The notes beneath the pieces are model-generated. The model was not told the origin of the DNA and did not search any database. It saw only the letters and a list, made by a program, of their open reading frames with translations. Source: a virus (lineage: Duplodnaviria; Heunggongvirae; Uroviricota; Caudoviricetes). From it: a stretch of DNA of 33,534 bases. The stretch lies in the IMG/VR virus record IMGVR_UViG_2558860170_000005; one strand, 5' to 3'. Shown here piece by piece: positions 28,915 through 30,476 of this stretch. Every line of letters starts with the position of its first letter. Within the stretch, counting starts at the first letter, position 1. The position numbers and the translations under genes were made by a program.

Positions 28915-29099
28915 ATAATGAAACTGGCGAAGATGAACTCAACTGGAAAAAACAGGTGTTGATTGCGGCGGTTTACGGTTTATGTGCGAATCCTGCGTGC
29001 ATAGCCTATGCGCCTGCAATCCCTGACATCGCAATGATGATTGCCAACAAGCTTGAAAATTTTGGAGTGACCAGTGATGAGCGCTTACCCGATTTTTGA
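28915..29099 (+). pseudogene. 3' fragment of an unknown early gene truncated by IS600 copy 5
   Basis: Open frame …[60 protein letters not shown] with no own start downstream of the IS end; overlaps the gam start. Confidence 0.35.
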
Positions 29100-29373
29100 T
29101 CGTATTGAAGAAATGGCATGGGCTCGCCACTACCAGCAGATCGTTCGTGAAGAAAAAGAAACGGAACTGGCGGACGACCTGGAAAAAGGTCTGCCTCAGC
29201 ACCTGTTTGAATCGCTCTGCATCGACCATTTGCAACGCCACGGTGCCAATAAACAGGCAATCAGCCACGCATTTGATGATGATGTTGAGTTTCAGGAGCG
29301 CATGGCAGAACACATCCGGTACATGGCTGAAACCATTGCCCACCACCAGGTTGATATTGATTTGGAGGACTAA
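29077..29373 (+). CDS. gam: Gam (RecBCD inhibitor), short form
   Basis: …[81 protein letters not shown]… closely matches lambda Gam as I recall it. Confidence 0.85.
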
Positions 29374-29378
29374 AATCT

Positions 29379-30476
29379 ATGGCGCTTTTTCAACGAGCAA
29401 TAAACACACAGGCCTATCTAAAAGCAGGAATTATGGGGTTTGCTGGCGACGGCAAAACCTACACAGCAAGCGAACTGGCTATTGGTCTGGTAATGCTTAT
29501 GCGGCAACGGGGAATTGAAGCTGGTAACCGCCCGGTAATGTTTCTGGACACAGAAACAGGCTCTGACTGGGTTAAACCCCGCTTTGATGCGGAAAATATC
29601 GAATTATTTACGGCAAAAACCCGCTCGTTTGTTGATCTGCTTGAAGCCATTAATGAAGCGGAAAGCAGCGGTTCCGTAATGATCATCGACTCCATCAGTC
29701 ACTTCTGGACCGGATTATGCGACGAGTATGCCAGACGCCGAAACCGTAAACGAGGACTGGAATTTTCAGACTGGGCGTGGCTCAAACAGGAGTGGCGACG
29801 CTTTACCGATCGATTTGTTAACAGTCAGGCGCACATTATTATGTGCGGGCGTGCAGGATATGAGTATGACTTTTTCGAAGGTGATGATGGCAAACGCCAG
29901 TTGGCAAAAACCGGTATAAAAATGAAAGCAGAAACAGAAACCGGTTATGAACCCTCCATCCTGATCCAGATGGAGAAGCAAATGAACATAGAAACCGGTC
30001 AGGTGTGGCGCACCGCCAGAATACTAAAAGATCGCTCCACCCGTATTGATGGACAGGTATTTTCAAACCCAACATTTAAAAACTTTCTTCCTCATATCGA
30101 GTTTCTTAACCTGGGAGGTGAACACCTCGGCATCGATACCTCACGGGATAACAGTGAATTATTTGCCAACGACGGTACACCGACATGGCTAAAAGAAAAG
30201 CGTGCAAAAGAAATCGCACTTGATGAAATTATCGAGTTGTTCAACAAGCACCATGGGGGCACCAGTAACGACGCCAAACGCGCAAAAGCTGATTTGCTGG
30301 AAAAAACATTCACCTCCCGCTCATGGGAAAGAATCAAAGGTATGGACTGGCCGACAATCAAAGCTGGTCGTAATGCACTATGGATTGAACTGGAAGGCGT
30401 TGAATATGCATTCCCGGATCCACAAACACAAAACGAAACGCAACAAGCAGGATACGATGAGAATATTCCGGTGTAA
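29379..30476 (+). CDS. P-loop ATPase, possibly Sak4-like (RecA-fold) recombination protein
   Basis: Walker A GFAGDGKT near the N-terminus, Walker-B-like VMIIDS; sits in the slot lambda uses for bet/exo, right after gam. The extra C-terminal ~170 aa is unassigned. Confidence 0.45.
   Translation: MALFQRAINTQAYLKAGIMGFAGDGKTYTASELAIGLVMLMRQRGIEAGNRPVMFLDTETGSDWVKPRFDAENIELFTAKTRSFVDLLEAINEAESSGSVMIIDSISHFWTGLCDEYARRRNRKRGLEFSDWAWLKQEWRRFTDRFVNSQAHIIMCGRAGYEYDFFEGDDGKRQLAKTGIKMKAETETGYEPSILIQMEKQMNIETGQVWRTARILKDRSTRIDGQVFSNPTFKNFLPHIEFLNLGGEHLGIDTSRDNSELFANDGTPTWLKEKRAKEIALDEIIELFNKHHGGTSNDAKRAKADLLEKTFTSRSWERIKGMDWPTIKAGRNALWIELEGVEYAFPDPQTQNETQQAGYDENIPV

Follow-up and report, generated by a model that had tools for sequence, protein, structure and literature searches.

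A Gam-coupled RecA-fold ATPase, a putative DNA-pairing protein, in a Rac-like prophage of Shigella and enteroinvasive Escherichia coli

The gam-ATPase cassette and its counterpart in K-12 Rac

We analysed a stretch of Caudoviricetes DNA of 33,534 nucleotides (IMG/VR record IMGVR_UViG_2558860170_000005; this whole stretch is referred to below as the window), in which a gene for the RecBCD inhibitor Gam is followed by a gene for a P-loop ATPase. The last 8 kb of the window are the integrase-proximal end of a decaying Rac-like prophage of Shigella and enteroinvasive Escherichia coli (EIEC), situated at ttcA and laden with insertion sequences (ISs). On the plus strand the order is the 5' part of a RecE-family gene, an IS600-like element, the tail of the RecE-family gene, gam, the ATPase gene, a DUF1187 gene, xis and a split integrase gene. 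The cassette that holds gam and the ATPase gene, together with the parts of both that are discussed below, is laid out as follows.

28933..30503, plus strand: cassette swapped in relative to the Rac prophage of E. coli K-12, comprising the tail of RecE-2, gam and the ATPase gene; it replaces the RecE nuclease domain, recT and ralR of K-12 Rac
29077..29373, plus strand: gam, RecBCD inhibitor of 98 aa (the GamS-length form), assigned by PF06064, PHROG 259 and identity to lambda Gam
29364..29369, plus strand: Shine-Dalgarno sequence GGAGGA within the end of gam, read from the sequence, 9 nt 5' of the ATPase ATG
29379..30476, plus strand: AAA_24/RecA-fold ATPase, putative recombination protein, 365 aa, intact (PF13479, PHROG 1366, AlphaFold, Foldseek)
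29436..29459, plus strand: Walker A (P-loop), G20-F-A-G-D-G-K26-T27, invariant in 32 homologs
29547..29561, plus strand: D57-T-E59-T-G, candidate RecA-type catalytic glutamate, with D57, T58, E59 and G61 invariant
29676..29693, plus strand: Walker B, V-M-I-I-D104-S, with D104 and S105 invariant (strand E100-104 in the model)
29856..29957, plus strand: residues 160-193, lysine-rich loop and candidate DNA-binding segment, with 17 invariant residues including K172 and K181
30171..30413, plus strand: family-specific helical C-terminal domain, about residues 265-345, confidently modelled, with a conserved [ST]RSW[EK]R motif
30426..30473, plus strand: disordered acidic tail, residues 350-365, ending Y-D-E-N-I-P-V (AlphaFold pLDDT <50), resembling the C-terminal tip of single-stranded DNA-binding protein (SSB)

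An initial annotation of positions 28915-30476, made from the sequence alone, had called Gam clear, and the profile search leaves no other impression: the protein matches PF06064 at E=8e-56 with 186.8 bits (Pfam gathering score 25) and is 81% identical to residues 41-137 of lambda Gam. Its open reading frame (ORF) opens at 29074/29077, and the start at 29077 is the same as that annotated in RefSeq E. coli genomes. Position 28915 had been given as the gam-side start; it is instead the first base after an IS600-like element, and the gam frame holds several stop codons between there and 29073. The second gene was correctly described as encoding a 365-aa P-loop ATPase; it is intact, and its Walker A and B motifs are invariant across the homologs compared. 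The gam stop codon TAA lies at 29371-29373 and the ATPase ATG at 29379. Given this 5-nt gap and the ATPase ribosome-binding site inside gam, translation of the two genes is coupled; both belong to the early-left (lytic) operon.

The extent of the cassette was mapped by blastn between K-12 Rac and EIEC locus L092, which is free of the interruption and shares 99.9% identity with the window (window coordinate = L092 + 16912). Homology to recE at the DNA level (87%) stops at L092 12020, window ~28932, corresponding to RecE residue ~585, which lies just N-terminal to the nuclease domain at the RecE C-terminus. Homology to Rac (96.8%) resumes at L092 13592, window ~30504, and covers rcbA, xisR, intR and ttcA. 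The K-12 ralR/ralA toxin-antitoxin pair is absent from the window, having gone with the swapped segment. The initially marked interval is therefore a nearly exact match to the cassette, apart from the meaning given to its first base, and its placement where lambda carries bet/exo proved apt: the cassette replaces exactly the RecE nuclease domain and recT of K-12 Rac.

It was noted that the uninterrupted EIEC RecE-family protein has 646 aa and aligns to K-12 RecE residues 40-585 only. It corresponds to "RecE-2", a type of RecE protein without the nuclease domain that a survey of lambdoid recombination modules remarked on in 2025 (PMC12315714, section 12). RefSeq labels the intact EIEC gene a pseudogene "missing C-terminus". 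The same truncated form nevertheless recurs beside gam in many E. coli genomes, and it may be a functional RecE-2.

In EIEC the early-left operon runs repressor, DUF1391, YdfB, YdfC, Rha, YdaE, a hypothetical protein, RecE-2, Gam, ATPase, RcbA, Xis and Int, and no other annealase appears in the full annotation of this operon. The inducible Cronobacter phage phiES15 has the order kil-gam-ATPase-DUF7740-Dam-xis-int, with no other recombinase or annealase in its complete genome annotation. The ATPase thus occupies the recombinase slot, recT being replaced relative to Rac and other annealases being unannotated in phiES15 and the EIEC operon.

Compared with lambda Red (Gam-Beta-Exo) and with RecE/RecT of Rac, the cassette shares the operon, the position and Gam, and in the Rac-homologous prophage it is a direct replacement. 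However, it has neither a Rad52-fold annealase nor an exonuclease, and its candidate pairing protein is of RecA fold and putatively ATP-dependent.

Family, fold and tail of the ATPase

Residues 14-187 of the ATPase match Pfam AAA_24 (PF13479; E=7.5e-14, 52.5 bits against a gathering score of 27; profile positions 3-153 of 195), and no other family in the Pfam scan comes close. The protein falls into PHROG 1366, labelled "unknown function" (E=1e-79), and gives a weak match to PHROG 124, "Sak4-like ssDNA annealing protein" (ssDNA, single-stranded DNA), at 9e-9. NCBIfam yielded zero matches and the NCBI name is "AAA family ATPase"; the family is nameless by function in PHROGs, NCBIfam and RefSeq. 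Sequence searches of the PDB returned nothing for a profile of the full-length ATPase, and nothing even at E<=10 for a profile of its C-terminal domain.

The AlphaFold model (pLDDT 84) contains a RecA-type alpha/beta core that takes in a beta-hairpin and extends to about residue 240, then a linker, the helical domain and the disordered tail. Pfam and structure prediction, which had been proposed as checks on the initial annotation, gave AAA_24 and a RecA-type core. The division into such a core and an unassigned C-terminal part holds, with a C-terminal part of ~120 aa in place of the ~170 aa first estimated. In Foldseek comparisons with the PDB, the core matched KaiC, RecA, RadA/Sms, Rad51 and UvsX at E values of 4e-7 to 6e-5. 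Among viral structure models, the nearest were AAA-domain proteins, a number of which carry the annotation RecA-like recombinase. The core fold is common to RecA, UvsX and Rad51, whereas the RecA profile PF00154 found no match in the Pfam scan of the ATPase, which also has no counterpart of the DNA-binding domains at the RecA C-terminus and the Rad51 N-terminus, and whose own C-terminal domain matches neither.

No structural match was found for the helical domain at residues ~265-345. A Red-beta-type C-terminal domain, reported on some Sak4 and RecT proteins (PMC8093625), was considered and rejected: hhalign gave a probability of 0.1%, so that this part of the ATPase is unrelated to the C-terminal domain of Beta.

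Conservation was assessed in an alignment of the 32 homologs at 60-88% identity. The E59 motif follows strand 2 in the AlphaFold model, at the position seen in RecA-superfamily proteins, of which this placement of the catalytic glutamate is a feature (PMC8093625). Residues R211, K217 and R219 of a beta-hairpin are likewise invariant. Residues 160-193 are the most conserved segment of the ATPase, yet the only internal stretch modelled at pLDDT 54-60. By analogy with RecA L1/L2, this segment may behave like a loop that becomes ordered on DNA.

An exhaustive HMMER search recovered 4426 representatives at E<=1e-3 and 501 at E<=1e-30, which places at least 501 clusters at 50% identity in the family. 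The two-domain architecture is the family norm, since most of the 150 best matches listed span residues 1 to ~340. Hosts and sources include Shigella/EIEC, Salmonella, Cronobacter, Atlantibacter, Pseudomonas, Achromobacter, Roseateles and many metagenomic viral contigs. The gene is present in 10 of 5426 complete E. coli genomes, and all three whose context was inspected carry it at the Rac site. The ORF in the window is not truncated, and many Shigella and EIEC genomes carry copies 99-100% identical to it.

Against enterobacterial homologs of 84-89% identity, identity was 43-46% at third codon positions and 86-95% at positions 1 and 2, and more than half of the codons for identical residues differed synonymously. 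These codon-position identities were used instead of NG86 dN/dS because synonymous sites are saturated. With third-position identity so far below that of the first two positions, the comparison indicates strong purifying selection on the family.

The acidic tail was examined among 255 full-length relatives. The C-terminus of short family members consists of an acidic stretch and then [IVL]-P-x, as in DENIPV (window), DEDIPQ, EDVPL, EDIPY and DDDVPF, while in longer members the motif is internal and followed by ~100 extra residues. Across 30 divergent members the proline column is at least 90% conserved in tails that are otherwise unalignable. The pattern [DE][DE][IVL]P occurred in 41 of the 255 tails, compared with 3.8 +/- 1.9 in shuffled tails, and a C-terminal [IVL]P-x likewise in 41 of 255 compared with 3.8; the shuffling ignores relatedness, so that these counts are indicative and not probabilities. 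SSBs encoded beside homologs end in the canonical DDDIPF. Judged by motif, the likeness of the tail to the SSB tip is real.

We also considered the tail as a substitute for an absent neighbouring SSB and rejected this, as there was no anticorrelation and the SSB-adjacent loci L067 and L079 carry the motif too. As a separate observation, 51 of the 255 relatives end in Ala-Ala, compared with ~6 expected from shuffled tails (e.g., loci L004, L057, L061 and L075). The terminal Ala-Ala often lies 5-10 residues past the acidic-I-P motif and resembles ssrA-type degradation tags.

A sizeable subgroup of 440-570 aa (L073, L077, L078, L080 and L084-L087; P0121-P0152) carries an extra ~100-200 C-terminal residues past an acidic-L-P motif, a region with zero Pfam matches. 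In a few proteins, of 700-1100 aa, the two-domain unit is contained in its entirety. Domain fusions were sought in ten longer relatives (500-1115 aa), which contained only AAA_24, plus one marginal match, in P0190, to an RNA-binding-region model without a significant stretch.

Gene neighbourhoods, Sak4 and a putative pairing function

Gene neighbourhoods were compared across 80 viral loci, reduced to 36 with non-redundant ATPases. Neighbouring genes were classed by Pfam and PHROG scans, which replaced clustering at the level of BLAST because the latter was too insensitive. Immediately 5' of the ATPase gene, 5 of the 36 loci have a Gam-like gene, and immediately 3' of it at least 4 of 34 have a gene for SSB; in the window the downstream gene is rcbA/DUF1187, with no SSB adjoining. 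In Achromobacter prophages the stop codon of the ATPase gene and the start codon of an SSB gene overlap. Persinger, a Pseudomonas phage, has exonuclease VIII encoded immediately upstream of the ATPase, and SSB a few genes downstream, 5' of the integrase gene.

A gene for a NinB/Orf recombination mediator follows the ATPase gene in 3 to 5 loci, three of which, all from metagenomic phages, were confirmed per protein, with the gene directly 3' of that for the ATPase.

L078, 7555-8001: NinB/Orf-type gene
L080, 7519-7989: NinB/Orf-type gene
L088, 7092-7472: NinB/Orf-type gene

In lambda the NinB/Orf gene belongs to the other early operon, where it lies within the nin region. The arrangement suggests a compact ATPase-Orf recombination pair in several metagenomic phages. 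An endonuclease gene follows the ATPase gene in 1 locus. Among 148 larger co-oriented flanking ORFs from 33 loci, the commonest Pfam families were integrase (12) and S24 repressor (7), and the RecT, Erf and Rad52 families were absent from the 25 of 48 Pfam families listed for these ORFs. The family is confined to early operons of temperate phages, with Gam, SSB, NinB/Orf or a RecE-type exonuclease as frequent neighbours. This is the neighbourhood described for Sak4, and also that of the classic exonuclease-annealase pairing.

Sak4 has been equated with AAA_24 and is usually encoded 5' of SSB, with gam-like genes upstream (PMC8093625). The Sak4 of HK620 binds ssDNA and is an ATP-dependent annealase stimulated via the C-terminal tip of SSB (PMC5928155). 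Sak4 proteins are described as RecA-core-only annealases of 220-245 aa, for which Lopes et al. used a criterion of under 290 aa (PMC2896510). With the Sak4 proteins of Lactococcus phi31, Pseudomonas PA73, E. coli HK620 (HkaL) and S. aureus 80alpha, the ATPase shares the Pfam umbrella AAA_24 and a RecA/Rad51-like P-loop core with Walker A, catalytic glutamate and Walker B. Its motifs are collinear with those of PA73 Sak4 (GxxGxGKT, TExG, IDSIS and HI[IV]M). Both occupy the same slot in temperate-phage recombination modules, often with SSB just 3' and an anti-RecBCD gene 5'. In contrast to Sak4, the ATPase carries the SSB-tip-like acidic tail and, in the window, pairs with a lambda-type Gam without an SSB.

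From this examination, our favoured reading, held with moderate confidence, is that the ATPase is a putative ATP-dependent DNA-pairing or annealing protein of RecA fold that forms a two-gene recombination module with Gam. The large phage family to which it belongs is probably a recombinase only distantly related to Sak4. The step from a RecA-fold ATPase in the recombinase slot to annealing of ssDNA is one that we infer, as is any role of the tail. On induction, Gam would block RecBCD so that phage DNA ends survive. The ATPase would bind ssDNA in an ATP-dependent manner via its conserved lysine-rich loop and, like Sak4, anneal or pair it with complementary DNA, and this pairing would promote recombination-dependent replication as well as repair or mosaicism of the genome. 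The acidic [DE][DE]x[IV]P tail might act as a mimic of the SSB tip that engages host SSB partners (RecJ/RecQ/RecO/PriA), which would serve a module with neither an exonuclease nor an SSB of its own; or it might fold back on the DNA-binding site of the ATPase itself. In its present host the prophage is crippled by IS elements; there the gene may be unexpressed and is probably silent cargo.

Several observations weigh against a pairing function of this kind. At 365 aa and with an extra helical domain, the ATPase falls outside the core-only definition of Sak4 at under 290 aa. Its similarity to the two Gram-negative Sak4 proteins compared, those of HK620 and PA73, for which biochemical or genetic tests exist, is not significant: BLASTP E=0.11, hhalign 0.7% and 0.4 bits with the family hidden Markov model (HMM) for HK620, and E=0.06, 1.6% and 3.7 bits for PA73. 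The family HMM was built from 254 sequences, and the hhalign alignments were shallow (effective sequence number, Neff, ~2), so that deeper ones might connect the two families. In about two-thirds of the non-redundant loci the genes directly adjacent are small and unannotated, with none recognisable as a recombination gene. Ring-forming KaiC proteins head the PDB fold matches, and the published description of the nearest studied relative, Gp65 of SimranZ1, is of a hexameric ring and not of an annealase (PMC10194130). Finally, the operon is cut by IS copies in the window and so gives no guide to expression.

The Sak4-type assignment offered in the initial annotation therefore survives in part: the AAA_24 match, the PHROG 124 match and the gene context speak for it, while the length, the extra domain and the lack of significant similarity to HK620 and PA73 Sak4 do not. 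The PHROG 124 match is the sole similarity link of the ATPase to Sak4. HK620 Sak4 itself reaches just 30 bits against AAA_24, with its gathering score of 27, and many HK620-type Sak4 homologs (L007, HK620, 5065-5745; P0271-P0390) had been pre-assigned to AAA_22. Because HK620-type proteins barely reach the AAA_24 gathering score and many are assigned to AAA_22, the equation of Sak4 with PF13479 is, by these profile scores, a loose one, and the Sak4 label spans several mutually undetectable subfamilies. On the evidence here, the ATPase family is a separate subfamily and not an orthologue of Sak4.

Phage annealases drive recombineering, shape phage mosaicism and are triggers or targets of several anti-phage systems. 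Because the family is large, conserved, situated in the recombinase slot and functionally unnamed, surveys of Sak4 that rely on small size or on HK620-type queries could score such phages as recombinase-less. The family spans Enterobacteria, Pseudomonas, Burkholderiales and metagenomic phages. If active, it would offer an ATP-dependent, possibly SSB-independent recombineering protein for Proteobacteria and a test case for an SSB-tip-like motif attached to a recombinase. It would also represent a natural exchange at one locus, in which a nuclease and a Rad52-fold annealase gave way to a nuclease inhibitor and a RecA-fold protein.

A more far-reaching form of the pairing reading, which we regard as doubtful, is that the module represents a third architecture of phage recombinase. 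Here the ATPase would be a self-sufficient RecA-fold annealase whose SSB-tip-mimic tail plugs into the host SSB network (RecJ/RecQ/RecO/PriA/ExoI). Gam and the ATPase would replace the whole exonuclease/annealase/SSB module, and the helical domain would be a new partner- or DNA-binding module.

Rival functions and the condition of the prophage

An alternative, which we judge unlikely, is that the ATPase is a ring-shaped hexameric RecA-fold translocase or helicase, a motor of branch migration or fork remodelling like RadA/Sms, which would even so act in phage recombination or in the restart of replication. In Foldseek the PDB entries closest in fold are hexameric KaiC and the RadA helicase, and the label "DNA helicase" or "replicative DNA helicase" is attached to several of the phage homologs. 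Of the relatives that have been studied, BLAST places closest the AAA ATPase of cluster-F mycobacteriophages, at ~31% identity over residues 4-191 (E ~1e-12) and with the same AAA_24 N-terminal domain. Its representative SimranZ1 Gp65 (Pham 9410) is reported to bind DNA, to have an ATPase activity stimulated by double-stranded DNA and to form a hexameric ring with a central pore (PMC10194130), and it is this report that keeps the translocase alive as a rival. The likeness is limited to the AAA_24 core: the cluster-F orthologue of phage Mattes, gp68, has ~293 aa, aligns to ATPase residues 4-191 only and is flanked by genes for methylases and an HNH endonuclease, not for Gam or SSB.

Against a translocase, the fold likeness to KaiC and RadA is not accompanied by Pfam matches to DnaB_C, RecA, KaiC or Lon-type domains or to the accessory domains of such families, and the helicase labels are automatic annotations. 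A separate replicative helicase or loader is present, DnaB-like with the EIEC orthologue and O/P in phiES15. The ATPase takes the annealase slot, beside exonuclease VIII in Persinger and in place of recT in Rac; if it were no annealase, the modules examined would be left without a recognised one.

It is also conceivable, if improbable, that the gene does nothing in this genome, being intact but stranded cargo of a dead prophage, cut from its promoter; this would be compatible with any biochemical function. Upstream of the gene, its operon contains IS600-like copies at 24845-26110 and 27651-28914; a third, at 31780-33043, splits the integrase, and elsewhere in the window are another three IS600-like copies (one of them split) and three IS1 copies. 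In 28800-30900, predicted promoters and terminators were no more numerous than in shuffled sequence, with no promoter-like site above chance between the IS at 27651-28914 and gam. Yet the ORF has kept its full length and its near-identity to the many Shigella and EIEC copies, and outward-reading IS promoters are conceivable. Excision of the prophage is probably no longer possible, because the integrase is split.

The least probable alternative by a small further step, and a very unlikely one, is the exclusion or defence function that the initial annotation had offered (or a counter-defence function), with no part in recombination: P-loop ATPases are common in defence systems, neighbours in Rac-type prophages include toxin and exclusion genes (ralR and sieB in K-12) and PHROGs gives the family no function, but PADLOC-DB v2 defence models produced zero families at E<=1, the gene is co-oriented and coupled with gam in a lytic early-left operon and not in the position of a lysogen-expressed moron, its conserved neighbours are recombination genes, and the protein has no nuclease, TIR, SIR2, transmembrane or other effector domain.

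The genes and elements around the cassette are listed below.

26111..27650, plus strand: RecE-family (RecE-2) 5' part without nuclease domain (NCBIfam PRK09709, exodeoxyribonuclease VIII, profile positions 8-524 of 877)
27651..28914, minus strand: IS600-like element (IS3 family) of 1264 bp that splits the RecE-family gene, defined by its self-BLAST copies, with orfA (100 aa) and orfB (272 aa) on the minus strand
28915..29099, plus strand: 3' tail of the RecE-family ORF (ORF 28866-29099), overlapping the gam start by 23 nt
30503..30715, plus strand: DUF1187 gene, orthologue of K-12 rcbA and first gene 3' of the cassette (PF06688, E=2e-36)
30791-31030, plus strand: xis
31032-31787 and 33028-33534, plus strand: intR-type integrase in two pieces, split by the IS600-like copy at 31780-33043
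2222-3486, 15838-17121, 24845-26110, 27651-28914 and 31780-33043: full IS600-like copies
6444-6893 and 8143-8959: split IS600-like copy, interrupted by ~1.25 kb (6894-8142)
1113-1887, 11412-12187 and 14934-15703: three IS1-like copies of ~770 bp, 99.6-99.9% identical to one another

The ORF of the RecE-family 3' tail gives a weak match to PHROG 607, exonuclease VIII, at profile positions 562-622 of 883. The product of K-12 rcbA is annotated as "double-strand break reduction protein". By self-BLAST, the window contains five full copies of the 1264-bp IS600-like element and one split in two, all 99.4-100% identical; so many copies in 33.5 kb point to a Shigella or EIEC host. The copy at 24845-26110 abuts the start of the RecE-family gene, and that at 27651 interrupts it. 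The insert at 6894-8142 in the split copy carries minus-strand ORFs of 279 and 112 aa and is probably another, nested IS.

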